From positions 1 to 32,000 of the forward strand of contig JAISYR010000011.1 of assembly GCA_031269795.1 (NCBI GenBank): 32,000 nt of DNA, read 5' to 3'. Source of the DNA: Puniceicoccales bacterium. Lineage in GTDB: Bacteria; Verrucomicrobiota; Verrucomicrobiia; Opitutales; JAIRKQ01. Below, piece by piece: positions 1,179-22,782 of this stretch (the first letter of the stretch is position 1; the number at the start of each line of letters is the position of its first letter). Both the position numbers and the translations under genes were made by a program. A model generated the notes under the pieces. That model did not search any database, had not been told where the DNA came from, and saw only the letters and a list, made by a program, of their open reading frames with translations.

Positions 1179-1262
1179 TGGTGCTCAGAACGGGACTCGA
1201 ACCCATACACCATAGGTACACGCCCCTCAAGCGTGCGTGTCTACCGATTCCACCACCTGAGC
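1179..1262 (-). tRNA. tRNA-Leu, anticodon GAG, long variable arm, CCA encoded
   Basis: Minus-strand sequence: GCTCAGGTGGTGGAATCGGTAGACACGCACGCTTGAGGGGCGTGTACCTATGGTGTATGGGTTCGAGTCCCGTTCTGAGCACCA. Acceptor stem GCTCAGG/TCTGAGC. Leu-type D loop GAATCGGTAGA. Anticodon stem CACGC/GCGTG with loop TTGAGGG. Variable arm of about 13 nt. T loop TTCGAGT. Confidence 0.93.
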
Positions 1263-3794: not shown

Positions 3795-3909
3795 TTTTTT
3801 ACGTACTTTCTCTGTTTTTGTGCAAGTCAGTCCCTGCATCACTTATCCGCGAACATATAAAACCTCATACCTCTTCTTTTAGTACATTAACGCGTGCCTG
3901 TACTAATTT

Positions 3910-5445: not shown

Positions 5446-6639
5446 CTAGCGCGAGTAAGGACTAATAAATTTTCGCCTGGTCGGTTTTCCTAGTCGCTCC
5501 TCGCTCGAATTGCGGCAGTCCCATTCTATTTGATTTTCACTAAAACAGTTCAGTAAAAGTCCAATCATGAAAGAGAGCAATACCAGGTTAGACCCTCCAT
5601 AGCTTATGAAAGGAAGCCCCATACCCTTCGTTGGAAATAAACCAGTAACAACGCCAACATTGATTATCACTTGGTAAATTATGGTCAGGGCTATGCCATA
5701 GGATAGAAATTTGGTAAAATTACTGTGAAGTTTTTTCGCAGAATGCGTGACGGTTAGAAAAAATGTTAAATATATCGCCAATGCTGCAGTGGCAGCTAGG
5801 CTACCCAATTCCTCGCTGAATATTGGGAAGATAAAATCCGTATGGGCTTCCGGCAAATAAACCAGTTGCTGGCGCCCTTGTCCCAGGCCTCTTCCATACA
5901 ATCCACCGGAAGCAAAACCAAGCATCCCCTGCCAAAGTTGGTATGCTCCCGCCAATTTATTATTTTCAACGTCGAGAAACGCAACTATTCGCCCCATTCG
6001 GGTAGGATTCAGATATATTAAAATTGAGATGGCCAATAATCCACCGAATATTGCAAGCCATATGTACAATAGGCGGGTCCCTGCTAAAAACAATAGGGTT
6101 ATCGCCACCGCTCCAATCAACATCGCCGTACCGTAGTCGGGTTCTAGAAATATCAAACCACATATGCTAGCAACTACCAGCAAAGGATTCAAAAATCCAA
6201 TCCCAAAACTCGACCGATTGTTTTCGCTATTGTTCAAATATTGTGCCAACCAGAGTATCGTGGCAATCTTGGCAAATTCTGAAACTTGAATATTGAAACC
6301 TCCCATGGATATCCATCGTCTCGATCCATTGACCATTTTCCCAATACCTGGAATTAATACGATGACCAGAGCGGCGATAAAAAATGTTAAAATCCATAGG
6401 CAATGTTTTTTCAAAAATCTTAGGTCAACAAAGCATCCGGTCAAAAAAAAAGGAACACCGAGGACACACCACAGCAATTGTTTGTAAAAATAGTTCTCCG
6501 ATTTTATAAACGACAAACTTGCACTCGATAAAACAATGAGACCAAGCCCCACTAGTAACCCGGTACACAGTAAAATAAACCAGCCAGCTTTACGCTGGCT
6601 GAAATAACCATAATACGCTTCCAATTTCTCTAGAATCAC
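5446..6639 (-). CDS. ftsW: SEDS-family peptidoglycan glycosyltransferase FtsW (FtsW/RodA family)
   Basis: 397 aa, polytopic membrane protein with FtsW/RodA family motifs (…RWISMGGFNIQVSEFAKI…, …EAHTDFIFPIFSEELG…, …GMGLPFISYGGSNL…). Its position after murD supports ftsW. GTG start 8 nt after the upstream stop. Confidence 0.9.
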   Translation of the reverse strand: MILEKLEAYYGYFSQRKAGWFILLCTGLLVGLGLIVLSSASLSFIKSENYFYKQLLWCVLGVPFFLTGCFVDLRFLKKHCLWILTFFIAALVIVLIPGIGKMVNGSRRWISMGGFNIQVSEFAKIATILWLAQYLNNSENNRSSFGIGFLNPLLVVASICGLIFLEPDYGTAMLIGAVAITLLFLAGTRLLYIWLAIFGGLLAISILIYLNPTRMGRIVAFLDVENNKLAGAYQLWQGMLGFASGGLYGRGLGQGRQQLVYLPEAHTDFIFPIFSEELGSLAATAALAIYLTFFLTVTHSAKKLHSNFTKFLSYGIALTIIYQVIINVGVVTGLFPTKGMGLPFISYGGSNLVLLSFMIGLLLNCFSENQIEWDCRNSSEERLGKPTRRKFISPYSR

Positions 6640-6647
6640 GGAAACAA

Positions 6648-7775
6648 CTAATCTTTAATCTCGATGACAGGAATTTCTTCAAAATTTTCGAAAAAATCTT
6701 CACCCCTTGGTTCGGAAGTATGCGCAACAGGAGGCTTAGGCTCAGTTACTACTTTTTTTTGTGGAATTAGAAGCTTCTTACCTTCCTGCAATGAGGAATT
6801 GTTCCCAAGGTTATTCAATTTTATCAAATCCGCTTTTTCTACTTCCAAATCACGGGCGATTTTGTCGATGGTGTCACCACTTTTTATTACGTATAAATCC
6901 CCCGAAGTCTTCGAAGCCTTAGGTGCGTGTTGCGGTGAAAGAACTAGGGCATTGTCTTTCCTCGCTTTTACGCTACTCGTTTTGTCCGAAGTGACGGCTG
7001 TTTTGGTAGGAATGACTAGCTTTTGTCCAACGCGTAATTTGTTTGGATTGTCCATATTATTAGCCTCCTGCAAAGCAGTTTGCTTTATGCCGAAGTGTTT
7101 TGCAATCAAGGTCAAATTATCTCCCGGTTTTACGGTATACTTGCCATCGTCATCTAACACCCTTTGGGTTCCTGCCGAATTATTAGCGTTAAAATCTTTA
7201 GCCATGGATTCCGGAATAGTTAGCTTCTGCCCTATTATCAATTTATCAGAAGATAAATTATTCACTGCTTTTAACGATTTTACCGTAACTCCGTAGGCGT
7301 GTGCTATTTTGGATAAAGAATCGCCCGCTTGGACAGTGTAAACGGTCGTCTTTGCAGTCGTAACTGGCGATGGCCATTCGGATTTACCACCCTCAATCTT
7401 CAGTCGCTGACCAACTGCCAGTTTACTATCCTTACCCAGGCCATTGACAGCCATAAGCGTTGCCGGTGACATTTTTACCTTCCTGGCAATCCCATAGATT
7501 GTATCCCCCTTTTGGACGACATAAACTTCATAGGCCAGCTCAAATGCGCTAACATCTCTAAAAAGACGATTTTCCACTCCAGTTTCCTCGAATGATTGCC
7601 TCGGTTGGGTAGGTTTTCTCCTCGCATTTGCCCCATTAAAAGCTACTTCAGGTGCAATAGAAGAGGCAACATTGTTGTATTTTTTCCCACTAGCACCATC
7701 AAAAATAGAACATCCCGTCATCAGCAATGCGAATGGTGTAAAAACATATACAATTAACACGTTTTGCAATTTCAT
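6648..7775 (-). CDS. lipoprotein with four LysM peptidoglycan-binding repeats, no recognisable catalytic domain
   Basis: Signal peptide plus lipobox MKLQNVLIVYVFTPFALLMTGC. Four LysM units: YVVQKGDTIYGIARK…, YTVQAGDSLSKIAHA…, YTVKPGDNLTLIAKH…, YVIKSGDTIDKIARD…, each ending GQxLxIP. No HxxxD/HxH M23 motif seen. Confidence 0.9.
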   Translation of the reverse strand: MKLQNVLIVYVFTPFALLMTGCSIFDGASGKKYNNVASSIAPEVAFNGANARRKPTQPRQSFEETGVENRLFRDVSAFELAYEVYVVQKGDTIYGIARKVKMSPATLMAVNGLGKDSKLAVGQRLKIEGGKSEWPSPVTTAKTTVYTVQAGDSLSKIAHAYGVTVKSLKAVNNLSSDKLIIGQKLTIPESMAKDFNANNSAGTQRVLDDDGKYTVKPGDNLTLIAKHFGIKQTALQEANNMDNPNKLRVGQKLVIPTKTAVTSDKTSSVKARKDNALVLSPQHAPKASKTSGDLYVIKSGDTIDKIARDLEVEKADLIKLNNLGNNSSLQEGKKLLIPQKKVVTEPKPPVAHTSEPRGEDFFENFEEIPVIEIKD

Positions 7776-7802
7776 ATTATAAGATCTATCCGTTTATAGT
7801 TG

Positions 7803-9146
7803 TCATTTATTTTGTAAATTCAAACATAAAACTCCATTTTCAAAAAATTTTCCCCTGTCCGCGTAGTCTTTAAACCAGTCAAGGCTTGAAAACCCTGGAC
7901 TTAACAACACCACATCTCCATCCTCAGCTACGATGAAGGCATATTCGGCAATATGAGCCATTAGTTTTTCCAAATCGCCATCGTTTGGAAAGAACGCATA
8001 TGCCTCCAAGTTTTTGATTAAATTCGCCCCCATGGTTTGATATAAAATTTTACCCGTTTCCCCCATCAGCAATAGAGCCTTAATCCGTCCTGTGACGATC
8101 CTTTGAAATTTTTCAAGGGGCTCACCCTTCGATTTTCCACCGGCTATCAGGATAACTTTTTTATTGAACGATGCCAATGCAGCATTCAATGCATGAAAGT
8201 TGGTCGCCTTTGAATCGTTCCAAAATTCCACCTCTTTTTCTTTCCCTGTTTGGATATCACACCATTTGACTTTGGTAACCATTTGGAGGCGATGGGGAGG
8301 AATTTTAAATGTTAGGGCGGCCTCTTGTAGGCACCCAACAGGAAAGTCGTTGGAAGTCCAAAACTTTTGGACCAGTGCAAAATTTTCTTGCTGTGTTTTA
8401 ATATTTAGTGCCGACTTCGTGGGCAACAGGTCAAATTCCGAACAAACGGTATATTTGCCCAAAACGTCCATGATTTGTAAGTTTTTACAAAAATCATGCA
8501 CACTTCGCCCGACGAAGCAGTGCCTTTGAGGACCATTGGGCATCTTGACATTCCTAAGCAAGTTTGCTTTACAATTAAAGTACTCCCTCATCCCCACATG
8601 AATATCTAGGTGATCATCTGCGAAATTCGTCCACAGGACATAATCTGGTTTGAACAATGCTCCTCCATCCATTTGAAATGAGCTCACCTCTATAACAGCC
8701 CAGGTATCCTGTTCATTCATATCAGAATCTATTATTTCTATGAATGGTCTCCCCATATTTCCACCCATGATTGCTTTTTGGCCATGAGTTTGCAATGCAT
8801 GGACCACAAATTCTGTGGTCGTTGTTTTCCCATTTGTCCCCGTAATAGCTACAATTTTTCCATGCCAAAAGCGTGATGCTAGGTCTAATTCACCTACGCA
8901 ACGGCAGCCCACAGCCATTGCCAATTTTGTCCACCCGTGGGAAAGTGTAAAACTTGGACTTCTAACAATTAGACGGCACTTCTTCGCCTCCTCTTCCGAA
9001 AATTGTTCTTCCCGTAATCCCGATTCGTTAAAAACTTTGTATGAAATGCTCCGCTTTTCACAAAATCGTACCACTGCTTTCCCGGTCACCCCATACCCAA
9101 AAATACCGACCGTTCCTGGAGCATTAATGACATCCAGTGTATCCAT
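7803..9146 (-). CDS. murD: UDP-N-acetylmuramoylalanine--D-glutamate ligase MurD
   Basis: Motifs GIFGYGVTGKA, ITGTNGKTTT, PHRLQ and NDSKATN. The track start at 9158 is TTG. ATG at 9146 (MDTLDV…) is preferred and overlaps the mraY 3' end by about 23 nt. Confidence 0.93.
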   Translation of the reverse strand: MDTLDVINAPGTVGIFGYGVTGKAVVRFCEKRSISYKVFNESGLREEQFSEEEAKKCRLIVRSPSFTLSHGWTKLAMAVGCRCVGELDLASRFWHGKIVAITGTNGKTTTTEFVVHALQTHGQKAIMGGNMGRPFIEIIDSDMNEQDTWAVIEVSSFQMDGGALFKPDYVLWTNFADDHLDIHVGMREYFNCKANLLRNVKMPNGPQRHCFVGRSVHDFCKNLQIMDVLGKYTVCSEFDLLPTKSALNIKTQQENFALVQKFWTSNDFPVGCLQEAALTFKIPPHRLQMVTKVKWCDIQTGKEKEVEFWNDSKATNFHALNAALASFNKKVILIAGGKSKGEPLEKFQRIVTGRIKALLLMGETGKILYQTMGANLIKNLEAYAFFPNDGDLEKLMAHIAEYAFIVAEDGDVVLLSPGFSSLDWFKDYADRGKFFENGVLCLNLQNK

Positions 9147-10245
9147 AAAATATGACAAATAGTGTTATTAATATGCAAATCACCTGCAGACAAAACGCAG
9201 CTTTAACAATTTCACTTTCTAAAAACCCTTTTAATTCGAAGTGATGGTGTAGTGGGGCCATCAGGAACACTTTTTTCTTAAAAACCTTTTTCGAGGCTAT
9301 CTGTAGCATAACGGAGAGTGTTTCGATTACAAAAATTACCCCCACGGTCAGTAAAATAAACGGCAACCGTAACAAACAAGCAACTATGGCTAATAGTCCT
9401 CCAAGACCGATGGAACCTATGTCACCCATGAAAATGGAAGCTGGATGTATATTAAAAATGCCAAAGCCAAAACATCCTCCTGCAAAACATGCGCATAAAA
9501 CTGCCAATTCCGTGGAACCCGCAATATATGATAGCATTGTTTCCCTAGTAATGTTTATGTTGTTTGCATAGAAGGCACACACGGCAAGGGACACAAAGCA
9601 CAGAGCTATGTTTACAATGGCTAATCCATCAATTCCATCGGTTAAATTTACCGCATTACTCGTCCCTGAAATGACGCAAAAATAGAAAACAACTATTATC
9701 ACCATGGCAATCTGTGGATCAAAGTAGCCATGGAACCATTTCCAATGCACATGCATCAAAAGACTATTAATGGGTGGATTTTGAGATGCTACGTAGAAAA
9801 TAAAACCAGTTATTAGTGCCTGTACGCATAGCTTTTGCCCGGACGTTACCCCCTTCGAATTTCCTTTTATGATTTTCAAAATATCATCGGCTGCCCCCAG
9901 CAGGGAGCAAAAAAGATAAACCAACAGGGATGTAATGACCAAATCGTTGAAAGATGTCCAAATGGCAATAGCAACAAACGAAGCCAGTGCAATTATGATA
10001 CCCCCCATGGTGGGAACCCCCCTTTTGTGGTCATGCAAAATTGCCAAGTTCTTTACCTGTTGCTTGGTCCGAAAAACTTGACGCACCTGATGTTTTGAAA
10101 GTGTTCTTATTATGGGTTTGCCCACTACCAATGCCACGACGAAAGCAGTAACAAAACCCCACACACATCTTTCGTACAGGCTATATTGCTTTCCAAATAG
10201 CAGCGAAACAAGAGGATTGAAAGGCCTTATGTCCAAATCTAGCAT
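9124..10245 (-). CDS. mraY: phospho-N-acetylmuramoyl-pentapeptide transferase MraY
   Basis: 373-aa polytopic protein with MraY motifs (…GVPTMGG…, …NAVNLTDGIDGLA…, …FMGDIGSIGLGG…, …APLHHHFE…). Confidence 0.95.
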   Translation of the reverse strand: MLDLDIRPFNPLVSLLFGKQYSLYERCVWGFVTAFVVALVVGKPIIRTLSKHQVRQVFRTKQQVKNLAILHDHKRGVPTMGGIIIALASFVAIAIWTSFNDLVITSLLVYLFCSLLGAADDILKIIKGNSKGVTSGQKLCVQALITGFIFYVASQNPPINSLLMHVHWKWFHGYFDPQIAMVIIVVFYFCVISGTSNAVNLTDGIDGLAIVNIALCFVSLAVCAFYANNINITRETMLSYIAGSTELAVLCACFAGGCFGFGIFNIHPASIFMGDIGSIGLGGLLAIVACLLRLPFILLTVGVIFVIETLSVMLQIASKKVFKKKVFLMAPLHHHFELKGFLESEIVKAAFCLQVICILITLFVIFYGYTGCH

Positions 10246-10575
10246 ATTTTTCTTTTTTATCCAAAAAAATCTGGCCGGATTCCTATTAAAAACAAACCTT
10301 CTCGCAAGGTTTTTTTGGAATCAGTCGTAAAATCTTCATCCCTCTCCGGAAACAGCTAGGCAACCTTTCCACTTTTTCTGTTTTTCCCTCCTCTTTTCCT
10401 AATTTTCCTGGGAGTTTGGAAGATTCGTAAAATCCCCTATCCCATTAAATTTAACGGCAGTTGGAGCGATTATTTTATTCTTTTTAAAAATTTAAATAAG
10501 TTTCTTTTGACAAAATGCATCGATATTTTACACTAACATTCCACTTTGACAAACTTTTATATTAAAGGATAATGT

Positions 10576-12162
10576 ATGGATTCAGCAAGTTTAGTACCGT
10601 TTGACCCCTCTCAAAATCTTTCCCAAAGTAACCCGAGCGACCCTACGTTTTCGATTAGGACAGCGGGAGAAGGGACCAATGCGTCCATAGTAAGTCTACT
10701 TAAGGACATAGAAAGTAAAGTAACGACGGCTCTTAAATTTTTTGGAGTAGATACTCGATTTTTCCCAAAATTTGTTCAAAATCTAAGGGGTGCTGTAAGG
10801 CCTGCATGTATCACGGCTGTGTCCTGTTTTGTGGCACTTCATCTTTTCTCTACAATTGGAGTATGCTTCATTGGAGGCACGATTTTTTTTATAAATCTGG
10901 CCATATCGCGAGCCAAGCTAGAAATGATGAAAGAGGATTTGGAAGCGATTAAAAAAAATGCGGATGAAATAGAATTCACCAATCAACAGTTGGGGACACA
11001 AAATGATGAATTATCTAGGCTCAACCAAGAGCAAAAGACAACGCTAGACGAACAAAAAGAGACAATAGAGGGAGCACAGCAGAATTTGGAAACGGCCCAA
11101 CATGAACTTTCGGAGGCTCAAGCAAGTCTCGCCCAGGAACAACGACTTAAAGAGTTGCAAGAAAAACAATCGGAGGAACAAACACAATTAATTGCCCAGC
11201 AAGAGGCGCAACTCAAAGCACAAGAAACTTATATTGCCCAATGTCAAAACTGCCTTGTTTCGGTTTTTACGTCTCAACAAGACCTGATCCACAATTTAGA
11301 ACAAAGTCTAAAGACGCAAACGGCCACGGTCCAACGAATTTTACAAAATGTACAAGACATTGCGAGGGGAGAACAGAAGTTGACTGACGCATTGAGTTGG
11401 GCTCAGAGTCGAATAGCAGCAGCCCAAACCCAATTAGCAACGGTGATTAATATGAGTACGGATATGACGGATCCTGTGAAGTGTAAAGAGCTCATCGAAA
11501 ATGGTCAATTTGCAGAAAAGGCTCGAGCAATGCAACAGGCTGCCCAAGAAGCATATAACATAATGAACGAGCTAAACTCTGGACTTACAACAAAGATTTT
11601 AGATGCTCAAAATGCAATAGCAACCAGTAGACAACAGGCAGAAGCTCAACTTAAAGCGCTGACATCGCAACAGCAAGCAACAAGCCATTCTTTGGCGCAA
11701 GCCAATGCCCAAATTCAACAAAAGGAACTGCAAATTAAGCACCTCCAAACAGAGCATCAAAGGGCATTGGCGCAGATGGGAACAACCAACAAAACCAAAA
11801 TACAAGCCTTGGAAGCTAGTATTAAGAAAGAAAAACAATCTCTGACGACGCTAACCAAAGAGAAAGGTTCACTAGCCAAACGCTTGCAAGCGGTTGAAAC
11901 TCAACTCACAGAATTACAGGGAAAGGTTCAATCGTTGGCCTCGTCCAATGAAGCACTACAAACACAGTGTAGAAGGCAAGAACAAACCATAGCGGAACAA
12001 CGGGAAACTATTGATAGCCAAAGACAAGCATTGGTAACAGCCCAAGAAAACCTTAATCGTCTCCAAACTCAAGTACAAAGTACAGGTTGGCTCCAAACTG
12101 TTGCTACTGTTGCTGGTACAATGGCTGGTACAATGGCAGCTGGGGCAATTTTCCATCGTTGA
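10576..12162 (+). CDS. Inc-like membrane-anchored long coiled-coil protein (hypothetical)
   Basis: 528 aa. AAGGA lies 7 nt before the ATG. Residues 77-110, ACITAVSCFVALHLFSTIGVCFIGGTIFFINLAI, form a hydrophobic stretch with a central polar/Gly break. About 390 aa of Gln/Glu/Ala/Leu-rich heptad-like sequence follow. The C-terminal hydrophobic tail is WLQTVATVAGTMAGTMAAGAIF. Confidence 0.8.
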   Translation: MDSASLVPFDPSQNLSQSNPSDPTFSIRTAGEGTNASIVSLLKDIESKVTTALKFFGVDTRFFPKFVQNLRGAVRPACITAVSCFVALHLFSTIGVCFIGGTIFFINLAISRAKLEMMKEDLEAIKKNADEIEFTNQQLGTQNDELSRLNQEQKTTLDEQKETIEGAQQNLETAQHELSEAQASLAQEQRLKELQEKQSEEQTQLIAQQEAQLKAQETYIAQCQNCLVSVFTSQQDLIHNLEQSLKTQTATVQRILQNVQDIARGEQKLTDALSWAQSRIAAAQTQLATVINMSTDMTDPVKCKELIENGQFAEKARAMQQAAQEAYNIMNELNSGLTTKILDAQNAIATSRQQAEAQLKALTSQQQATSHSLAQANAQIQQKELQIKHLQTEHQRALAQMGTTNKTKIQALEASIKKEKQSLTTLTKEKGSLAKRLQAVETQLTELQGKVQSLASSNEALQTQCRRQEQTIAEQRETIDSQRQALVTAQENLNRLQTQVQSTGWLQTVATVAGTMAGTMAAGAIFHR

Positions 12163-12317
12163 TTCTATGGTATCAAGAATTACTCTATGGCACATGGGGA
12201 ATAATTCTGCAAGCTGACCCTGTGCCCAGATTGTTCAGTTTTCCAATGGTAAAAGTTACTTCCCTCCCCATACTGATTCCTTTATTCCCTCGGAACATCC
12301 GCAAAACACAAGCTTCA

Positions 12318-13454
12318 TCAGGTAGACGGTGCCATTAATGCTTTGATTCTGCTACGAAATTCTTGCCCATCTGGATCTGATTCGTCTACCGGAAAATCCC
12401 CAAAGCTTTGAATTTTTTCTTCCGTCGCGACGATTTTAAATTTAGTTCCCGCGTGTAGCAAGTATACAAGTTCAAAATGGCTCGTCGCTCCTTCTTGATT
12501 GTCCGTGGACAAATTTTTATCAGCCAATGCCTGGATAGCAGCATTGACGCGTGCACCAATGGTTGGTTTGTCAATGGGAGTATCGGAAATTGGACTATCT
12601 GGCCCATTGCTTGCTTCATAGGCCTGACGAAATACATGATAAGCATAAAGATTTTTTAAATCTCCATGATCATTTATCTTTGATAAAATCTTGGGTGACA
12701 CAACACCAAACAGCATAAATTGGTAATCAGGGCTGGGCCCCATGGAGTCAATTTGTCTCAAAATTTCTTTCCAAATATGATACGATGTAAATACTCCCTG
12801 GGCGGTAAATGTGTGACCGTACGCGCCTTCGGGAAATATGAATGCTATATCTCCTCCTTGGTAAGACACATATTGAATACGCCCTACAAAATCCATTCCC
12901 CATGTTGAGAATCCGAAGGATGGAACTGACCACAGTGTCCATCCAATTGCAGGCATGACATCGCCGCTTTGGTTTCTAGGGGTTAAAACATCTTCAGTAT
13001 ACCCCAACACAATGCTTCCCTGTGCATTGATGTAATTAAAAAGCGTGACTAAGGTGTTATGCTGTGGGCTACTAACATCTAATTGGCCTATAATATCGCC
13101 AATTTTTTCACCCAAGCCTTGCAATTCCGCATCAGGTAATTTGCCATCTAATAGCCGGTTGATCTGATTCAACGTATCTCGATCAAACGTAGCCCATCTC
13201 GTGGAGATCTCGCCCAATGATGCCCGCCTCTTTGAGGCTCGATAATTTGCGATACGTTCCCTTAATACCTGTCTCGACCGACTTGATCTCCTTGAGACAA
13301 GTGGCATATACTGTGTAAGTAACCTACGAAGAATAGTGTTGGCATATGTTTGTTGATACCAATCAAACCTCGGTTTCTCAGATCTTAGATCCACAAAACT
13401 TCGTACAGCCATCGCCCCTCTATGACTGCTATCAATGAACGTTCTGCCGTCCAT
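12318..13454 (-). CDS. hypothetical protein, paralog B of the tandem family
   Basis: The track start at 13490 is TTG. ATG at 13454 (MDGRTFIDSSHRGAMAVRS) aligns with the paralog A N-terminus (MSKEIFIDRSRAAAMALRR). The core is shared with A: …NRLLDG.LPD.ELQGLG…YINAQGSIVLGY.EDVLTP…LWSVP.FGF..WGMDF…YVS.QGGDI.FI.PEG.YGHTFTAQGVFTSYHIWKEILRQIDSM…SHFEL.YLLHAGTKFKIVATEEKIQSF.DFPVDESDPDGQE. Confidence 0.8.
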   Translation of the reverse strand: MDGRTFIDSSHRGAMAVRSFVDLRSEKPRFDWYQQTYANTILRRLLTQYMPLVSRRSSRSRQVLRERIANYRASKRRASLGEISTRWATFDRDTLNQINRLLDGKLPDAELQGLGEKIGDIIGQLDVSSPQHNTLVTLFNYINAQGSIVLGYTEDVLTPRNQSGDVMPAIGWTLWSVPSFGFSTWGMDFVGRIQYVSYQGGDIAFIFPEGAYGHTFTAQGVFTSYHIWKEILRQIDSMGPSPDYQFMLFGVVSPKILSKINDHGDLKNLYAYHVFRQAYEASNGPDSPISDTPIDKPTIGARVNAAIQALADKNLSTDNQEGATSHFELVYLLHAGTKFKIVATEEKIQSFGDFPVDESDPDGQEFRSRIKALMAPST

Positions 13455-13617
13455 GTTGCAGAAATGTAGAAAAATTTTTTCATCTGTCAAAAAGAAGTAA
13501 AATTTTTCACAAAAAGAAATTATCTACGTAGGAACAAACACATAAACGGGGAATATAGATATTATCTCCTATAGGCGAAGATAAGACTAAGCTCAATCCC
13601 AAAACTATCTACGAAAA
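12318..13617 (-). repeat. tandem duplication unit, copy B (gene plus conserved leader)
   Basis: Blocks matching copy A by eye. 12358-12482 vs 14224-14347: about 4 mismatches in about 125 nt. 12740-12822 vs 14617-14699: identical, 83 nt. 12823-13190 vs 14700-15060: roughly 80-85%. Leader 13543-13617 vs 15420-15504, including the identical 17-mer ggaatatagatattatc. Segments 12483-12739 and 13200-13454 are far more diverged. Confidence 0.85.
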
Positions 13618-13664
13618 TAAATCTGACCCTATTCCTAGATTTTTCAATTTTCCAGTAGAGAGAA

Positions 13665-14132
13665 TTACTTCTTCCGTAATGCTGACTCCTTGATTTCTTC
13701 GAGGCATCCGTCAAATACAAGCCTCGTAAGTCGTATGATTTGCGGCACTTCTTTCCAGTGATTGTAGTCATCATATACAAGTACTGCACTTTGCTCCTTC
13801 AAATTATTCCCATAAAACTTACAGAGAATCATTCTTTCGACTTGGGAGGAATGTTCATCGACTAACCCTAGCAAACTTTCCGCAAACAGCGGATCAAATA
13901 GTTGTTCCTGCATTGCTTCATTGAATTTCCAAAAATACTCTTCGTCGGTTTGGCCAATTAGCATGTTGGGTTTGTGATCCACAAAGTCATAGTAAGTATA
14001 GGTATATGCTCCCCTATCGGAAATATCAATTTCGCATATCACCTCTATCTTCCCCTTGGATAACCCTTCCTTTGCGTCATCTACCAATTGCACAGATTCA
14101 TGCCTATAACTGATTCTTACTGGATTATTCAT
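13665..14132 (-). CDS. small acidic hypothetical protein, co-oriented partner of paralog A
   Basis: 155 aa. ATG lies 50 nt after the paralog A stop, preceded on the minus strand by AAGGAAATAAGGGTACG. By hand count it has about 28 Asp/Glu vs about 18 Lys/Arg. No family recognised. Confidence 0.7.
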   Translation of the reverse strand: MNNPVRISYRHESVQLVDDAKEGLSKGKIEVICEIDISDRGAYTYTYYDFVDHKPNMLIGQTDEEYFWKFNEAMQEQLFDPLFAESLLGLVDEHSSQVERMILCKFYGNNLKEQSAVLVYDDYNHWKEVPQIIRLTRLVFDGCLEEIKESALRKK

Positions 14133-14182
14133 CGTACCCTTATTTCCTTAAAAATAAAAAAAACAGAACCACTGGCAAGTCA

Positions 14183-15346
14183 TCAAGTAGACGGCGCCGC
14201 TGATTTTCTAATTCTGTCACGACATTCTTGCCCGTCGGGATCTGATTCGTCTACCGGAAAATCCCTAAAGCTTTGAATTTTTTCTTCCGTCGCGACGATT
14301 TTAAATTTAGTTCCCGCGTGTAGCAAGTATGCAAGTTCAAAATGGCTTACCTCTCCCTTGTTCCCGCTCCTGAAAATTATTTTGCAGCCATGCTCTTTCC
14401 ATGCTTCGATAGCACTTCGAACGCGTGCACCAATGGTCGATTTGTCAATGGGAGTGGTGGCAATTAAACTGCCTCGCCTATTGTATGACGCATAAACTAA
14501 ACAAAATATATGATAGGCATAAAGAATTCTAAGATCCTCCTTTTTGCTGCACGATAAAAATTTTGATCCTATCAAAGAATCCAATTCACACATATTTCGA
14601 TAATTGGGCTGGGGATCCATGGAGTCAATTTGTCTCAAAATTTCTTTCCAAATATGATACGATGTAAATACTCCCTGGGCGGTAAATGTGTGACCGTACT
14701 TGCCTTCGGGAAGTATGAATGTTATATCTCCTCCTTGGGAAGACACATACTCAAGACGTTTTCTAAAATCCATTCCCCATGATTCGAATCCGAAGACTGG
14801 AACTGACCATAGTGGGCACCCAATTGCAGGTATGACATCACCGCCTGGAATTTTAGGAGTCAAAACATCTTCCTTGTATCCCAATACGATGCTTCCCTGG
14901 GCATTGATGTAATTTAAAAGTTCAATAAGAGCATTACGCTGTGGGCAACTAACGCTTAACTGACCTATAATATTGGCAATTTTTTTACCCAAGCCTTGCA
15001 ATTCCGTATCGGGTAATCCGCCATCTAATAGCCGGTTGACCTGATCCTTTGTATCTTGATCTAAACATGCCAGCTTCAGCCTCTTTGAAAATTTGCCACA
15101 AGAGGCCGATCTTCTTAAACCCAGGCCTGAAGTTTGTCCCACTATTGGTGTGCTTGGTTCATGCTCCTGACTCAATTTCCGTGTACCAAGTGCCCTCCGT
15201 CGGCTAAGTACCCCACATTCTTCGAGAGACGGATAAAGAGTGTTGAAACTATAGCTGTATTGGCAACGCGAATCAGCCTGATCCATAATTCTTCTTAGAG
15301 CCATCGCTGCTGCACGACTTCTATCAATAAAAATTTCTTTGCTCAT
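14183..15346 (-). CDS. hypothetical protein, paralog A of the tandem family
   Basis: 387 aa with an ATG start. See paralog B for the shared core. The N-terminal ~100 aa are Arg/Ser-rich and diverged from B. Confidence 0.8.
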   Translation of the reverse strand: MSKEIFIDRSRAAAMALRRIMDQADSRCQYSYSFNTLYPSLEECGVLSRRRALGTRKLSQEHEPSTPIVGQTSGLGLRRSASCGKFSKRLKLACLDQDTKDQVNRLLDGGLPDTELQGLGKKIANIIGQLSVSCPQRNALIELLNYINAQGSIVLGYKEDVLTPKIPGGDVIPAIGCPLWSVPVFGFESWGMDFRKRLEYVSSQGGDITFILPEGKYGHTFTAQGVFTSYHIWKEILRQIDSMDPQPNYRNMCELDSLIGSKFLSCSKKEDLRILYAYHIFCLVYASYNRRGSLIATTPIDKSTIGARVRSAIEAWKEHGCKIIFRSGNKGEVSHFELAYLLHAGTKFKIVATEEKIQSFRDFPVDESDPDGQECRDRIRKSAAPST

Positions 15347-15504
15347 ATTACATGAACATGTGGTGAAATTTTTCGCCTGTCAAGGGAAAAAGTAAAACTA
15401 TTTACATAATTACAAATATATAAACATGGAATATAGATATTATCGTCAACAGGCGAAGATAAGGCCAGGCTCAACCCGTACAACTTCAAAACTATCTACG
15501 AAAA
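14183..15504 (-). repeat. tandem duplication unit, copy A (gene plus conserved leader)
   Basis: See the copy B entry for block coordinates. Confidence 0.85.
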
Positions 15505-15605
15505 CGCTAACATGGTGCTTGCTCGTTCTTCCTGCCCTTGAGAATTGCCACCATGTGGGGCAATGCAGTTTCAGTATGCCATAATTCTTCCAACAAATAT
15601 TTTAC

Positions 15606-18101
15606 TTAGCTGGATGACAGTGATAACTTTTCACCATCTTTTTCGTGGGAAATGGTAATTTTCGTTCCACTGGAAATTTCACCACTCAGCCACCTATCGG
15701 CAAGGGGGTCTTCGACATTTTTTTCGATGGCACGCTTTAGCGGACGGGCACCAAACTTCTTGTCGTAGCCATTTTTCACGAGGAAATTTTTTGCATCATC
15801 GGAAAAGGTAAGGGTTATTCCCTTTTCGGCAGCACGTTTGCTGACTTTGTCCAACTCGATGTCGACAATTTTTTGCAGAGCTTCATGGTCAAGTTGTTTA
15901 AACACAATCATGTCCGTTAGCCGATTGATAAATTCAGGCTTAAAAGTCTTCTTCGCTTCCTCGATGATCGACGTTTTTATCCGCTCAAAACTTTGGGACG
16001 TATTTTGATCCGCAACAAAGCCAAGGGACATGTCCTTCTGCAAGATCTCAGCTCCGACATTACTCGTCATAATTAAAAGCGTATTTTTAAAATCCACCTT
16101 GCGGCCTTGACTATCCGTCATGTGGCCATCTTCCAAAACCTGTAATAAAATTTGTAAAACATCGGGATGGGCCTTTTCCACCTCATCGAAAAGAATAACC
16201 GCATAGGGCTTACGCCTAATCTTTTCCGTTAGCTGGCCTCCGTCATCGTGGCCAACGTATCCCGGAGGCGATCCAACCATTCGTGACACGGAATGTTTTT
16301 CCATGTATTCGGACATATCGATCTGGATAATGGCGTCCCTGTTACCGAAAATCTGTTCAGCCAACATCTTAGCTAAATAGGTCTTCCCCACCCCCGTAGG
16401 GCCAAGGAATAAAAATGACCCAATTGGTTTGTTGGGGTCATTCAAATCCGTCCGTGAACGGCGGATCGCACAGGCAATGCCTTCGACGGCTTCATCCTGG
16501 CCGATTACGATTTTTTTCAATGCTTCACCGAGATGTAGTAAACGTTCCGACTCTTTCTTCTCAAGGCGTGTAATTGGAATCCCTGACCAACCAGCGATAA
16601 CAGCCAAAATGGCATCAACATCAATCCTAATGATACTATTTTTTGATCTCCTTTGGGCCTGCCGAAAAAGTTTCTCTTTCTCTTTCATTAGCTGTTTTTC
16701 CGTATCCCGCAATTGGGCAGCTTTTTCAAAGTTCTGCGCCTTGATCGCTGATTCTTTGTCGCAATGTACCTCTTCGATCTTTTTCAACAATTTCTCCATT
16801 TTTGGAGAATTGGTGGGTACGTTTAATCGCGCCTTAGCTCCCGCTTCATCGATGACATCAATGGCTTTATCCGGCAAAAATCTGTCCTGGATATACCTTG
16901 CAGAAAGTTTCACAGCCTCTTCAATTGCCTCATCCGTATATTTTACAGCGTGGTGTTCCTCGTAGCACTTTTTAACTCCCTGTAGAATCAAAATTGCATC
17001 CTGAATGCTCGGAGGGTCAACCTGCACAGGTTGAAATCGACGTTCGAGTGCGCTGTCTTTTTCTATGTGCTTGCGATATTCATCGAGGGTGGTCGCTCCA
17101 ATGCATTGAACTTCGCCCCGCGACAGTGCCGGTTTCAAGATATTCGACGCATCCATGGCTCCCTCCGATGATCCTGCACCGACGATGGTATGCAGCTCGT
17201 CCAAAAACAATATGACATTTTTGGCACGCTTAATATCCTCCATGACAGCCTTCAAACGCTCTTCAAATTGTCCCCGATACTTTGTCCCTGCCAGCATGAG
17301 GGCCATGTCGATGGAAATGATTTTTTTATTGAGTAGGGCCTCGGGAACTTTGCCAAAGGCTATTGCCTGGGCCAACCCTTCCGCTATCGCCGTCTTCCCC
17401 ACACCCGCTTCGCCAACTAAAACGGGATTATTCTTTGATCGCCTACATAAAATTTGTAATACCCGCGTAATTTCTTTTTCTCGACCAATCACAGGATCCA
17501 ACTTGTTTTCCTTTGCGATTTCCGTCAAATCTCGGCCAAATGCATTTAACGCCGGTGTTTTTATGCCCGATGGTGGGTTGTCTTTGTCTGATATTTTTTC
17601 CGATGTGAAATGGAAATCATCGTTGTCATTATTCCCTTCGTCCACGCCAACAAAGTTGGGATCGAGGGCCGATAGTATCGCCTGTCGGCAGCTTTCCATT
17701 CTTACACCTGCTTCCGCCAACAGCCTGGCTGCAACTTCATCACCCTCGCGCAAAATTCCCAATAGGAGATGTTCGGTACCAACGTAGGGATGTTGTAGCA
17801 TGTTTGCTTCCTTTGCCGCTGCCAGAAGAACCTTTTGCACGAGCGGAGACAGCGTAATGTTCGATCCATTTTGAGCATCTGTATTTGTTGTCGACAGGTG
17901 CTGTTCGATCTTGGCGCGAATTTTTCCAAGGTCAACCCCCATGGATCGTAGGATGTTAATGGCAATGCATTGTGGCAATCTCATAAGTGCCAACAGGAGA
18001 TGTTCGGGCCCTATGACAGATTGACCAAGTCGTTCTGCTTCCTGCCTGGCCATCGCGAGGATCTGCTGGGCACGCGGAGTTAAATTTACCATTGAATTCA
18101 T
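15606..18101 (-). CDS. clpC: ATP-dependent Clp protease ATP-binding subunit ClpC
   Basis: Two Clp_N repeats (…GPEHLLLAL…, …GTEHLLLGI…). AAA-1 GEAGVGKT. UVR-like linker (…AIKAQNFEKAAQLRDTEKQL…). AAA-2 GPTGVGKT. The track start at 18191 is TTG and adds 30 implausible residues. ATG 18101 (MNSMVNLTPRAQQIL) is preferred and ATG 18092 is also possible. Confidence 0.95.
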   Translation of the reverse strand: MNSMVNLTPRAQQILAMARQEAERLGQSVIGPEHLLLALMRLPQCIAINILRSMGVDLGKIRAKIEQHLSTTNTDAQNGSNITLSPLVQKVLLAAAKEANMLQHPYVGTEHLLLGILREGDEVAARLLAEAGVRMESCRQAILSALDPNFVGVDEGNNDNDDFHFTSEKISDKDNPPSGIKTPALNAFGRDLTEIAKENKLDPVIGREKEITRVLQILCRRSKNNPVLVGEAGVGKTAIAEGLAQAIAFGKVPEALLNKKIISIDMALMLAGTKYRGQFEERLKAVMEDIKRAKNVILFLDELHTIVGAGSSEGAMDASNILKPALSRGEVQCIGATTLDEYRKHIEKDSALERRFQPVQVDPPSIQDAILILQGVKKCYEEHHAVKYTDEAIEEAVKLSARYIQDRFLPDKAIDVIDEAGAKARLNVPTNSPKMEKLLKKIEEVHCDKESAIKAQNFEKAAQLRDTEKQLMKEKEKLFRQAQRRSKNSIIRIDVDAILAVIAGWSGIPITRLEKKESERLLHLGEALKKIVIGQDEAVEGIACAIRRSRTDLNDPNKPIGSFLFLGPTGVGKTYLAKMLAEQIFGNRDAIIQIDMSEYMEKHSVSRMVGSPPGYVGHDDGGQLTEKIRRKPYAVILFDEVEKAHPDVLQILLQVLEDGHMTDSQGRKVDFKNTLLIMTSNVGAEILQKDMSLGFVADQNTSQSFERIKTSIIEEAKKTFKPEFINRLTDMIVFKQLDHEALQKIVDIELDKVSKRAAEKGITLTFSDDAKNFLVKNGYDKKFGARPLKRAIEKNVEDPLADRWLSGEISSGTKITISHEKDGEKLSLSSS

Positions 18102-18194
18102 GTTTTTTCGAAAGGATACATGATATGCATTGCGGTATAATTTGCAAGTGTCGATGCAATTCTCACACCACTTTGGATTAAGATTAAGCAATTT

Positions 18195-20240
18195 TTATGC
18201 CACACTTCCATTCAAATTTTCCAATAAATCGGTCTCGTTCCAGATTTCCAAGCCAAGAGATTGAGCTTTTTCCAATTTTGAACCACAATTTTCTCCGGCA
18301 ATCAGTATGTTCACACGTCCAGATATGGTATTGGCAACATTGCCGCCAAGGTGTTCGATTTTTTCAATCGCTTCTTGGCGTGTCATGGATGACAATGTGC
18401 CGGTTAGGACAAAATTTTTCCCGTAGAATTTTGAATTTTGATTCTGCGAAATTTCCAAATGCCTATCGCCAGGAATGATCCCCAACATGCGTAAATCATT
18501 GAGGGTGTTCCCGTTATGTTGTTCCCTAAAAAACGCAACTATCGCACTGGACAATTTCATCCCAATGCCATTAAGCTGTTCCAATTCTTCGGGTGTCGCA
18601 GCAATCAGATTGTCCAAGGAATGGAAATGGCTTGCTAGAATCTTTGCCGTTTGTTCCCCAATGCCCAAAATGCCGAAACCGTGCAGCAAGCGCCAAAGGG
18701 GTCGATTTTTACTACCGTCAATGTTGCTCAAAATTTTCAAGGCCGATTTGGTCCCAAATTTTTCCAAACATTCTAGATCATTAAAGGTTAGGCGGTAGAT
18801 ATCGGCGATATTGTTTAATTTTTTTACCGCCATCAGTTTTTCAATTATGACTGTACCTAGCCCATCAATGTCCATGGCTGCCCGTGAAACGAAATGTTCC
18901 AAACGCCTTTGGATTTGTGGCAAACAGCACAAATTTTGACATCGCCAAGCAACCTCTCCAGGCAATTGTATCAATTGTGACCCACAGGATGGACAGGTTC
19001 TAGGGAAAATAAATGGTATGGAATCTGCGTTTCGCTTTGTACTATCGACGGCTACGATCGCCGGAATTATTTCCCCCGCCTTTTCCACCGTCACATAATC
19101 TCCAATGCGGATATCTTTTTTCGATATTTCATCAGCATTGTGTAGGGTTGCCCGGGAAACATTTGTGCCCGACAATTGTATGCTTTCCAAATCTGCTACC
19201 GGGGTAATTATTCCCGTACGGCCGACTTGCAGGACAATGTTTTTGATTTTTGTCGTTGCGCGTTCCGGGGCGAATTTATAGGCAATGGCCCACCGTGGAG
19301 ATTTTGCCGTTGCCCCTAAGATTCCATAAAGTTGTAATTCATTGACCTTTAACACCGCCCCATCGGTCCAATAGGGAAAGATATGCCGCGTCTCGTTTAG
19401 TTCTTCGACACATTTCCAGGCTCCTTCGATATCTTCCGCTAGCCAATATTTTTCCTGGGATGCAAATCCGAAATTTTTCAAAAGTTCTAGAACTTCACTT
19501 TGGAGGTTTACAATCTTTTCTGAACAATGGCCGATGGCATAGGTAATTAATTTTAAATCTCGTTCGGCAACTTCATCGATGTTAAGGGTCTTCAGGGTTC
19601 CGGCGGCCAGGTTACGCGGATTGGCAAATAGTTCGAGCCCCTGTTCCTCCCGTGTTTTATTTATTTCAATAAAGGTTTGCTTATCCATGTAAACTTCCCC
19701 ACGAATTTCAATGGCTTCGGCATAATTTTCGATTTCCCGCGGCAAATCTCTAATTGTTTTAATATTCGCACTGACATCGTCTCCCACCACGCCGTTCCCT
19801 CTGGTTAACGCCCTAAAAATTTTCCCCTTTTTGTAGATCAAATTGATCGCGATACCATCGATCTTCGGTTCAATGACATAGGAAAATTTTCGCGGTCCAA
19901 GCGTAGCCCCCAGATGGTTAGAAAATTGGAACAGTTCTTCCCGGGAATAGGTATTTGATAAACTCATCATGGGGGACAGGTGGGCAAACGATTGAAACCC
20001 GGAATTGCTGTCATCCCCGATGGCCGTATCTTCTATCTCTACCGAATAAACTGCCAAAATTTCTTGTAACCTTTCCACTTCAGACTTCAAACAATCATAT
20101 TCAAAATCAGAAATTCTAGGGTTGTTTTCTCTATAGTAGAGCCTATCGTGCAAATTCACTTCGGACAATAATTTATCATATTTCGCTTTCAGGGCCCGGA
20201 TTTCGGATGTCGAATAAGTTTTCGTAATGTTGCTCACCAT
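18195..20240 (-). CDS. ligA: NAD-dependent DNA ligase LigA
   Basis: 681 aa. Adenylation motif EPKIDG. Zn-finger cysteines CPSCGSQL…CQNLCC. HhH region. C-terminal BRCT (GKNFVLTGTLSSMTRQEAIEKIEHLGGNV). Confidence 0.97.
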   Translation of the reverse strand: MVSNITKTYSTSEIRALKAKYDKLLSEVNLHDRLYYRENNPRISDFEYDCLKSEVERLQEILAVYSVEIEDTAIGDDSNSGFQSFAHLSPMMSLSNTYSREELFQFSNHLGATLGPRKFSYVIEPKIDGIAINLIYKKGKIFRALTRGNGVVGDDVSANIKTIRDLPREIENYAEAIEIRGEVYMDKQTFIEINKTREEQGLELFANPRNLAAGTLKTLNIDEVAERDLKLITYAIGHCSEKIVNLQSEVLELLKNFGFASQEKYWLAEDIEGAWKCVEELNETRHIFPYWTDGAVLKVNELQLYGILGATAKSPRWAIAYKFAPERATTKIKNIVLQVGRTGIITPVADLESIQLSGTNVSRATLHNADEISKKDIRIGDYVTVEKAGEIIPAIVAVDSTKRNADSIPFIFPRTCPSCGSQLIQLPGEVAWRCQNLCCLPQIQRRLEHFVSRAAMDIDGLGTVIIEKLMAVKKLNNIADIYRLTFNDLECLEKFGTKSALKILSNIDGSKNRPLWRLLHGFGILGIGEQTAKILASHFHSLDNLIAATPEELEQLNGIGMKLSSAIVAFFREQHNGNTLNDLRMLGIIPGDRHLEISQNQNSKFYGKNFVLTGTLSSMTRQEAIEKIEHLGGNVANTISGRVNILIAGENCGSKLEKAQSLGLEIWNETDLLENLNGSVA

Positions 20241-20325
20241 AAATAATTTTTATCAAAATGAAATGTCAGCTTGTCTTTTGACCACAAAAAAATAACAAAG
20301 AATCACATCTTTTTCAAAATTTATT

Positions 20326-21450
20326 ATGAAATTTTCAATAGAAAAGGCTACGTTTGTTAATGGCTTGCAGCAAGTTTTGAGCATTGTCGAACAACGGGCA
20401 ATTATTCCGGTCCTAAGCAATGTGTTGTTGGACTGTGCCGACGGTAGGCTGAAAATTACTGCAACCAATTTGGACATTTCCATCCATTGTCAGGTGAAGG
20501 CAGAAATCGAAAGCGAAGGCAAAATAACACTTCCGGCGAGGAAATTGTCCGCCATTGTCCGCTCCTTGCCAGGGGATACGGTCGTGTCAGAACTCGTCGG
20601 TACGACGGTGAAAATTTCCTCAGGCCGTTCCAATTTTCAAATCATGGGACTTCCGGGGGATGATTTTCCAAGCACAAATGAACCAAACCTGTTGAATAAA
20701 ACACAGTTGCAACAGGCGGAAATGGCAAAAATGTTGAAAAATGTTTCCTTTGCCCAGTCCAACGATGACAACCGTTTTATTTTAAACAGCGTATACTTTT
20801 GCTTCGACCAGAACAAACTAACATTCGCTGCAACGGATGGCCGTCGTTTGAGTCTGGTATCTAAGGAGATAGCTGAAAATGTAGAAAACACAAAGGGAGT
20901 AATAATTCCCAGCAAAACAATCCGAGAAATTGAAAGACTTCTTGGCCAAGGAGAAGATGTATCCTTTCTGTTCGATAATCGCCAAATTGTGTTCCTCATT
21001 GCCGTAGATAAAGAAAATCAGGACGGCCTAATGGGTGACATCAAGGTGGTTTCCAAAATCGTTGAAGGCAATTACCCAAATTTTCGCCAGATTATTCCCC
21101 AGGGGGCAGAAAATCGTGTAAAACTCGATCGCCAACTCACCCTTGAATGCATTCAAAGGGTAGCAATCGTTGCCAATGACCAAAAAAATCTAGTCAAACT
21201 ACATTTTGAAAATAATACCCTGGAGATATCCGCTGAAAGCCAAGAATACGGAAATGCCCATGAAAAGATTGCCATTGTTTACGAAGGAAAACCGATTGAA
21301 ATCGCGTTCAATTACATGTTTATTTGTGATCCATTGAAGGTTTTGACACAGGATGAAGTGTTTTTCGAATTTAAGGATGAGTTGAGCGCTGGAGTGTTTA
21401 AAACCCTAGAAGATTTCCTATATGTCGTTATGCCATTGCGAATGGGATAA
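20326..21450 (+). CDS. dnaN: DNA polymerase III beta sliding clamp DnaN
   Basis: 374 aa. Typical N-terminus MKFSIEKATFVNGLQQVLSIVEQRAIIPVLSNVLL and C-terminus …YVVMPLRM. Confidence 0.95.
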   Translation: MKFSIEKATFVNGLQQVLSIVEQRAIIPVLSNVLLDCADGRLKITATNLDISIHCQVKAEIESEGKITLPARKLSAIVRSLPGDTVVSELVGTTVKISSGRSNFQIMGLPGDDFPSTNEPNLLNKTQLQQAEMAKMLKNVSFAQSNDDNRFILNSVYFCFDQNKLTFAATDGRRLSLVSKEIAENVENTKGVIIPSKTIREIERLLGQGEDVSFLFDNRQIVFLIAVDKENQDGLMGDIKVVSKIVEGNYPNFRQIIPQGAENRVKLDRQLTLECIQRVAIVANDQKNLVKLHFENNTLEISAESQEYGNAHEKIAIVYEGKPIEIAFNYMFICDPLKVLTQDEVFFEFKDELSAGVFKTLEDFLYVVMPLRMG

Positions 21451-21479
21451 GTTTAAAAAATTTAAAGTGGGATTTAGAC

Positions 21480-22775: not shown

Positions 22776-22782
22776 TACGCCT

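Follow-up and report, generated by a model that had tools for sequence, protein, structure and literature searches.

We asked what has shaped a two-copy gene cassette, and what it might encode, in a stretch of 32,000 nucleotides (nt) from a metagenome-assembled genome (MAG) of the Puniceicoccales, Verrucomicrobiota (assembly GCA_031269795.1, contig JAISYR010000011.1, positions 1 to 32,000 of the forward strand; hereafter the window). Two copies, A and B, of a gene for a protein of about 380 residues lie head-to-tail there on the minus strand, with a gene for a 155-residue protein, the partner, between them, and the initial annotation had described patches of nearly identical DNA in the two copies, set among segments that can hardly be aligned. 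Comparison of the window with seven syntenic contigs (eight genomes with 12 family genes in total) led to an evolutionary account in which we have high confidence: a two-gene unit was tandemly duplicated, one copy of the partner gene was lost, the two large genes diverged asymmetrically, and gene conversion between them recurred. As for the function, we tentatively favour, at a probability of roughly 45%, the reading that the large protein is an exported antagonistic or host-directed effector, or toxin-like, and that the small acidic partner is its cognate binder.

The minus-strand open reading frames (ORFs) between clpC, which ends at 15606, and a convergent gene for a coiled-coil protein are A, the partner gene and B, in this order. 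The features of the cassette, all on the minus strand, are listed below in the direction of transcription.

15347-15504, minus strand: upstream regulatory region of A and start of repeat unit 1, with a distal conserved block that contains TTGACGATAAT and a 17-mer at 15428-15444
15355-15383, minus strand: predicted proximal sigma-70-like promoter of A (TTGACA, 17 nt, CATGTT), ending 8 nt before the ATG
14183-15346, minus strand: copy A, 387 residues, fast-evolving, with a disordered basic N-terminal part of about 95 residues and a folded core of about 290 residues
14617-14699, minus strand: counterpart in A of the exact 83-nt block of B
14223-14347, minus strand: counterpart in A of the 3' conversion tract of B
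14133-14182, minus strand: spacer that separates A from the partner gene and carries a Shine-Dalgarno-like AAGGAAATAAGGG 5' of the partner ATG
13665-14132, minus strand: partner gene, 155 residues, isoelectric point (pI) 4.85, starting 50 nt downstream of A, highly conserved and of no known family
13618-13664, minus strand: sequence 3' of the partner gene that closes repeat unit 1; its homolog, at 12211-12256, follows B
13455-13617, minus strand: upstream regulatory region of B, with which repeat unit 2 starts; the 17-mer is at 13550-13566
13463-13490, minus strand: predicted proximal promoter of B, of the B type (TTGACA, 16 nt, TACATT), ending 8 nt before the ATG at 13454
12318-13454, minus strand: copy B, 378 residues from the ATG at 13454, conservative, with the canonical N-terminus that it shares with the single-copy genomes
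12740-12822, minus strand: exact 83-nt block in B, inside an older conversion tract that also covers both copies of the related contig L001
12358-12482, minus strand: recent 3' conversion tract of B
12211-12316, minus strand: relic of a second partner gene, joined directly to B and made up of the last 61 nt or so of the gene and about 45 nt from its 3' flank

The proteins encoded by A and B are 56% identical, and the similarity of their genes is strongly uneven. Sliding-window DNA identity was 100% around 12740-12822/14617-14699 and 98% around 12380-12480/14245-14345; it was about 80-88% for the central core and dropped to 35-65% both in the first third and in an internal segment, with 49% between the N-terminal coding regions and about 45-50% over the 5' third. 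The annotated mosaic was reproduced: the 83-nt block is an exact match that cannot be extended, the 370 nt that follow it are 80% identical on re-measurement, the first 300 or so coding nucleotides (35-67%) and the segment between the two best blocks (42-63%) are indeed barely alignable, and the upstream blocks 13543-13617 and 15420-15504 are homologous, with 65 of 85 aligned positions equal. The near-identity of the 3' tract also held, with five differences in 125 nt rather than about four, and its counterpart in A lies one base away from the position first given, at 14223-14347. The 17-mer of the upstream blocks occurs exactly twice in the window, with no occurrence expected in shuffled sequences. 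Copy B, said to lack cysteine in its core, proved to have none in the entire protein (its L001 ortholog has one), while A has 11 and its L001 ortholog 8; the other family members have 1-5.

We then evaluated whether these patches reflect gene conversion or a constraint on specific DNA modules, the two explanations that the initial annotation had offered side by side. In a permutation test of the Sawyer/GENECONV type on polymorphic sites (our own implementation, 10,000 permutations), the longest run of matches between A and B far exceeded what chance would give, and so showed a mosaic rather than uniform divergence (P<1e-4), and the paralog pairs of the contigs L002 and L003 gave P values of 1e-4 and 0.004, respectively. 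Copies A and B show no synonymous divergence (dS 0.0) in the segment of the codon alignment that includes the 83-nt block, and little (0.085) in the 3' tract, as compared with 0.49-0.68 in the flanking segments. Since the orthologs in other genomes have a dS of 0.6-0.7 in the 83-nt block, a general constraint at the DNA level is excluded. In the 3' tract, furthermore, A and B are 98% identical to each other, whereas A is only 76% identical to its ortholog in L001 and B only 71%. The quartet formed by the window copies (W_A and W_B) and their L001 orthologs (L1_A and L1_B) contains 224 informative sites that group the genes by orthology and 17 that group them by genome, and 13 of these 17 fall within 75 nt of the 3' tract. 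Gene conversion was thereby borne out on three counts, namely paralogs of one genome that are closer than orthologs within the tracts, the collapse of dS and the significant permutation tests.

It might still be argued that the mosaic reflects only purifying selection that varies along the protein, or a collapsed or chimeric repeat in the assembly, with no gene conversion at all; indeed, the DNA is most similar where it codes for the best-conserved protein motifs, and MAG contigs can be chimeric. This explanation is however largely refuted, and we regard it as highly improbable, because dS is 0-0.09 inside the tracts against 0.6-0.7 for orthologs of other genomes, because the paralogs are nearer to each other than to their orthologs in the 3' tract, and because the two-copy layout recurs in L001, an independent assembly from another termite with a different tract of its own, and two-copy arrays are found in two further contigs.

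Since the paralogs are old, copies of the same type would be expected to be closest to each other along their whole length. This was observed only at the 5' end, where the N-termini of the B-type copies are 65-96% identical. In the core, the window pair (81%) and the L002 pair (85%) exceed the values for same-type copies across genomes (74-76%), and in the 3' tract, in the same segment comparison, the window pair (88%) and the L002 pair (96%) cluster by genome. The A-specific motif PVDESDPDG is present in B of the window and absent from B of L001, which points to conversion from A to B in the 3' tract; the different tract of L001 has a shared state that is B-like, which points to the opposite direction there. 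Instead of having A or B as the donor, the tract sequence may have been imported from a third allele. Segmental conversion that keeps bacterial paralogs evolving in concert is exemplified by babA/babB of Helicobacter and tufA/tufB of E. coli, and the present pair resembles these in that near-identical segments alternate with divergent ones within a genome, that tracts differ between related strains, and that some tracts group by genome and not by ortholog. Unlike them, it belongs to an uncharacterised family in an uncultured symbiont, and its copies are adjacent and direct, with their own predicted promoters and one common partner gene.

The duplicated unit was described in the initial annotation as a leader and a gene only. 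Comparison of the two units instead showed that the repeat unit of 1887 base pairs (15504-13618) comprises the upstream region, the large gene, the 155-residue partner gene and about 45 nt of flank, with the junction of units 1 and 2 at 13617/13618, so that the partner gene belongs to the unit. The evidence for this is the partner relic behind B. Its translation, LMKLVFCGCSEGIKESVWGGK, corresponds to LTRLVFDGCLEEIKESALRKK in the intact partner; the hidden Markov model (HMM) of the partner matches it with an E value of 0.05, and a DNA alignment reveals the same relic in L001. Comparison of the units also showed a deletion, after the duplication, of about 460 nt that comprised the spacer and most of the second partner copy. 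In L002, a 5' relic of the partner gene (E 2e-8 with the same HMM) lies between the two family genes.

The upstream regions date the duplication. Those of W_A, L1_A and one copy each in L002 and L003 (L2_2 and L3_2) form an A-type, with 80-89% identity to each other and 44-59% to the rest; all the remaining copies have a B-type, except that of the contig L006, which fits neither type well. The presence of two orthologous types indicates that the duplication is older than the split of these lineages. An A-type copy always stands directly upstream of the one intact partner gene, and the single-copy genomes, L006 aside, retain the B-type. Three independent duplications (in the window and L001, in L002 and in L003), as the gene orders and the within-genome clustering had seemed to indicate, were considered and dropped, because the upstream regions fall into the two orthologous types.

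The conserved block upstream of each copy had been taken for an untranslated leader. It is more likely a promoter and operator region. The upstream region of A has homologs at 13455-13617 and in front of each of the 12 family genes in the eight genomes, and in all 12 an invariant TTGACA is followed, after 16-17 nt, by a hexamer resembling TAnnnT whose end lies 7-9 nt from the ATG. No other minus-strand site in 12100-15700 resembles a promoter as closely as the candidate promoter of B (10 of 12 positions). This geometry predicts leaderless or nearly leaderless mRNAs. The ORF listing had placed the start of B at a TTG at 13490, which was rejected in favour of the ATG at 13454 as the most likely start, since that TTG opens the invariant TTGACA box and all the orthologs start at the aligned ATG. 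The distal conserved block combines TTGAC[GA]ATAAT, the 17-mer and a small inverted repeat, and may serve as an operator or a second promoter. A structured RNA leader was also considered for the upstream blocks and was not supported: an Rfam search of the window matched only two adjacent tRNA genes (1093-1166 and 1182-1262, minus strand) and neither of the blocks, the single-sequence folds of the blocks had z-scores of -1.0 and -1.6, and the alifold consensus of the upstream regions was -0.13 kcal/mol with 6 pairs, so that no significant or covarying fold was found. The partner gene has a Shine-Dalgarno-like stretch of its own, AAGGA/AGGG.

The order of genes around the cassette is common to the seven further contigs, in which ligA and clpC are followed by the family gene or genes with the 155-residue gene, the coiled-coil gene, mraY and murD. 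Four of the seven carry a single family gene, with the partner gene starting 44-50 nt further on, a spacing also kept in the other related loci apart from L006, where the gap is larger only in appearance because the partner start was called too late. L001 has the order of the window (A, partner, B) and 87% identity to it across the cassette region, and in L002 and L003 the partner gene comes after a pair of family genes.

The partner is 78-96% identical across the eight genomes, and the large protein only about 50%. It gave no match in Pfam at E values up to 1 and nothing meaningful in a sequence search of the PDB, and alignment to the CesT-family protein of the window itself (hhalign) gave a probability of 0.1-0.7%. 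A homolog of the partner stands beside the family gene in all eight close loci and in six of the seven distant contexts that were read, next to family members only about 17-25% identical; it is 30% identical in L016 (E 7e-27), has E values of 1e-21 in L034 and 9e-11 in L033, where it lies upstream of the family gene, and also adjoins distant members in L009 and L017. This recurrence beside such diverged relatives indicates an old two-gene module. Of the six distant loci with a partner, five have the large gene ahead of the small one at a spacing of 16-57 nt, and this arrangement holds in every close relative. The distribution of the module is patchy, and its genomic context is not conserved outside the clade. 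L008 has no partner; there, an ORF at 7121-7357, just downstream of the distant member P0020 and in the expected position of the partner, matches the family HMM (E 6.5e-7) and is a fragment of a second family copy.

Two of the distant members lie beside homologous polymorphic-toxin arrays (L033, 1-8643; L034, 5843-9047), which contain Ntox8 and WHH/Colicin-DNase toxins that share a pre-toxin region, together with SUKH (SMI1_KNR4) immunity genes. L033, from a termite-gut sample, also carries a DUF2750 gene and a gene for a large protein with beta-helix-like repeats, and L034 is a metagenome contig from ENA. No pre-toxin region common to the family and the neighbouring arrays was found.

The large protein had been called unassignable, and this description stood, as none of the profile, sequence and structure searches produced an acceptable match in spite of a confident model. 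Pfam, NCBIfam, PADLOC and PHROGs gave no match to the large protein or the partner, distant members included. We found only 15 close family clusters among 5.8 billion, all the named ones being from Puniceicoccales MAGs; a profile search of 1.84 billion representatives yielded 23 proteins, about 17 of which are distant relatives (E 3e-11 to 4e-4), two of them from other Puniceicoccales MAGs, and the family amounts to about 40 proteins in 15 billion. The plasmid, phage and viral contigs that were searched contained no relatives, and a metagenome scan with the back-translated motif GxxT[YF]FELAYL picked up 15 loci without a family member among them. Two matches were rejected: a designed helical bundle in the PDB (6egc, E 1e-4) owes its score against the family profile to composition, and a 1391-residue ankyrin/NACHT protein (P0017, E 1e-15, in 7 stretches) merely sums weak repeat matches to a helical region of 45 residues and is not homologous.

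The AlphaFold2 model of the core (residues 96-387 of A, with distant relatives in the alignment) reached a mean predicted local distance difference test score (pLDDT) of 92.2 and a predicted template modelling score (pTM) of 0.90, and is a helix-rich alpha/beta domain with three short strands. In Foldseek searches with this model, the best E values were 0.99 (PDB) and 0.72 (BFVD), with template modelling (TM) scores of at most 0.21; matches to TIM barrels, a zeta toxin and the TcdB glucosyltransferase (E 1-5, TM at most 0.19) were discarded. The motifs common to the family are AQxxIxLG, W, WGxxFxxR, GxIxF and TxFExAYL, with few invariant polar residues (Q150, R197 and E337). In the full-length model, residues 1-30 and 49-91 are below a pLDDT of 50. 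The N-terminal 100 or so residues are basic (pI 9.5-11.6 in 11 of the 12 copies) and include a conserved site of the basophilic-kinase type, R[RQ]x[ST][LW], which is RRASL in B; no Sec-type hydrophobic leader or transmembrane segment was apparent when the sequences of A and B were read by eye. The family, its predicted fold and the partner are undescribed, while the conversion process and a gene pair of this shape are already known.

The N-terminal diversification that the initial annotation had proposed was supported both by the low identity of the paralogs in this region and by the rates of evolution, which we determined as ratios of non-synonymous to synonymous divergence (pN/pS) between the window and L001. 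Codons 1-325 of A have a pN/pS of 1.82, with 73.5 non-synonymous and 11.5 synonymous differences (one-sided P=0.023), and on these counts A appears to be under diversifying selection. The value is 0.45 for codons 1-320 of B, 0.29 for the partner gene, which is under strong purifying selection, 0.58 for the coiled-coil neighbour, and 0.07-0.22 for clpC, ligA, mraY and murD, with clpC at 0.07. The synonymous divergence of the cassette is 0.05-0.11, as compared with 0.30 for clpC and mraY. Recent horizontal transfer was considered as a cause of the low value and set aside; over the full 17 kb, the window and L001 are anywhere between 67 and 99% identical.

The source of the DNA bears on any host-directed role. 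The genome had been assumed to belong to the Chlamydiota, which proved wrong: the protein encoded by copy A is identical to the hypothetical protein LBS22_01870 of a Puniceicoccales bacterium MAG, the close matches are likewise from Puniceicoccales MAGs, and the species-representative genomes that carry the family have isolate names, such as Cc175_bin120, Gsp477_bin153 and Ncb351_bin8, of the kind used for termite guts. These sample codes stand for lower, dry-wood termites (Glyptotermes, Neotermes cubanus) in PMC11707648, and small-genome Opitutales from lower termites are described as putative endosymbionts of flagellates, including the intranuclear Ca. Nucleococcus, in PMC11257099.

The window also contains a gene for a CesT-family type III secretion chaperone (27502-27948, minus strand, 148 residues; PF05932, E 3e-20, above the gathering score), which would imply a type III system in this verrucomicrobial genome. 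Near it, the ORFs 24605-25849 (414 residues) and 25872-26297 (141 residues) have no Pfam match and could encode clients of CesT. Next to the cassette, the convergent coiled-coil gene (10576-12162, plus strand) encodes an Inc-like membrane protein of 528 residues, in which a bilobed hydrophobic segment (residues 75-115 or so) is accompanied by a long coiled coil and by a hydrophobic tail at the C-terminus. It occupies the same position in all eight syntenic contigs and is fast-evolving, with a pN of 0.165.

On these grounds we tentatively read the large protein as an exported effector or toxin-like protein and the 155-residue protein as the partner that would escort or neutralise it. The features that suggest this are the linked small acidic partner, the absence of an apparent Sec signal, the disordered and fast-evolving N-terminus, the diversifying change in one paralog, the CesT-family chaperone and the Inc-like neighbour in the window, the toxin arrays near distant members, and the host-associated source. 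One conserved partner would serve two diverging clients. Within each genome, short conversion tracts have repeatedly made the cores and 3' ends of the two genes alike, and the first 100 or so codons and some loops have diverged; in A, the two tracts correspond to residues 205-240 and 330-375, approximately. Conversion of the core and the C-terminus might be favoured because it keeps both paralogs compatible with the single partner.

Several points weigh against this reading. The partner has no similarity to CesT or to other chaperone or immunity families. Its conservation far exceeds that of the large protein, and it shows no co-variation with the fast copy A, which is unusual for toxin-immunity pairs and awkward for a chaperone that binds a hypervariable N-terminus. 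The small number of invariant polar residues leaves no evident catalytic site, the modest non-synonymous excess in A (P=0.023) could result from relaxed constraint, and the two toxin arrays, being homologous, may represent one association only. Between the two roles of the partner, its high conservation fits an escort better, and the toxin-array context and the relics fit immunity better.

A more specific form of export, in which A and B are type III effector paralogs with a dedicated class I chaperone and are injected into the flagellate host, is possible but unlikely. Gene pairs of a type III effector and a class I chaperone, such as Tir/CesT and YopE/SycE, typically have a chaperone that is more conserved than its effector. 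The present pair resembles them in a small acidic protein of about 150 residues encoded beside a larger and faster-evolving one (a feature that is not specific to chaperones), in a disordered and variable N-terminus with no apparent Sec signal, in its host-associated lineage, and in the genuine CesT homolog elsewhere in the window, with the type III system that it would imply; the pN/pS above 1 of copy A also suits an effector. However, sequence and profile comparisons of the partner gave no match to any chaperone family, and within the window this CesT-family chaperone is the only type III component, with no apparatus gene seen. Moreover, the N-terminus that the chaperone would be presumed to bind is the least conserved part of the large protein, while the partner is nearly invariant, and distant members lie beside toxin arrays resembling those of contact-dependent inhibition (CDI), on contigs of unknown taxa, and not beside type III loci.

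These arrays bring in another explanation, which we consider doubtful to a similar degree, that of a toxin-immunity or toxin-antitoxin-like module with a toxin of new fold and an acidic immunity protein, B being an orphan toxin cross-protected by the single immunity protein. Such a module would account for the large-then-small gene order at close spacing, for a linkage conserved tightly across distant relatives, for the patchy distribution, and for the decaying relics, namely that of the partner after B, the 5' one in L002 and the family fragment in L008. In this respect the cassette is like the polymorphic toxin cassettes of CDI (CdiA-CT/CdiI), Rhs, WHH-SUKH and type VI secretion systems, which likewise have a large gene followed closely by a small acidic one, tandem duplication, orphan relics and recombination between copies; two distant members are even located physically beside Ntox8 and WHH-SUKH arrays. 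It differs from them in that the variable part is N-terminal and the C-terminus is homogenised, with no C-terminal toxin tip, in that the small protein is highly conserved and has not co-evolved with A, its 78-96% identity contrasting with about 50% for the supposed toxin, and in that there is neither a pre-toxin region in common with the neighbouring arrays nor a known toxin, trafficking or immunity domain, PADLOC being negative as well. Stable vertical inheritance at one chromosomal site in eight genomes, and the upstream position of the partner in L033, also speak against this module.

That same stable position, between clpC and the mraY-murD cell-wall cluster, would suit a complex that is not secreted at all, in which a lineage-specific enzyme or structural protein is joined by a regulatory subunit, with ordinary paralogy and relaxed constraint in small symbiont genomes. 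The well-folded predicted core and its conservation, the strong purifying selection on the partner, and the lack of direct evidence for export of the large protein are consistent with such a complex. We nevertheless regard it as improbable, in view of the context that is not conserved outside the clade, the patchy distribution, the disordered and hypervariable N-terminal region, and the pN/pS of 1.8 in A as compared with 0.07-0.22 in the neighbouring housekeeping genes.

Returning to the favoured reading of an exported protein with a cognate binder, a more far-reaching version of it is speculative and quite unlikely in its entirety. The cassette would then be an unrecognised, widely scattered two-gene system with a new fold; in the putative endosymbionts of termite flagellates the large protein would be a host-delivered effector, the N-terminal kinase-type site would be recognised by host kinases or serve in targeting, and conversion would be selected because it keeps the interfaces compatible with the invariant partner.

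The remainder of the window has further features in addition to the cassette. Proteins with an autotransporter beta-domain (PF03797) are encoded in the window at 2415-3842 (minus strand, E 1e-18) and in the contig L005 at 14929-16311. Besides the two ORFs near the CesT gene, those at 160-906, 4368-5282 and 30640-31743 also have no Pfam match at E 1e-5 (141-414 residues for the five), and together with the cassette and the coiled-coil gene such orphans make up about a third of the genes of the window. The clpC gene (15606-18191, minus strand) is listed from a TTG as 861 residues; its orthologs are called at 828-831 residues, which indicates that the real start in the window is probably about 30 codons downstream. 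The identity between the window and L001 over 6000-23400 is very uneven, at 95-99% for dnaN and ligA, 90-93% for clpC, 86-90% for mraY and murD, and falls to 67-75% in the end regions of B and the coiled-coil gene; this suggests a recombining population or locally accelerated evolution.

The cassette thus presents a clean and quantifiable case of segmental conversion in an old paralog pair of uncultured, probably intracellular symbionts, in which recombination is often assumed to be weak. It also adds a two-gene module that is absent from databases, with a confidently predicted fold that has no structural relative, in a region with many other candidates for genes of host interaction. Should the large protein indeed be exported, this family would count among the first candidates for effectors in verrucomicrobial symbionts of the flagellates in termite guts, and would provide a test case for gene conversion that is selected to keep several clients compatible with one partner.

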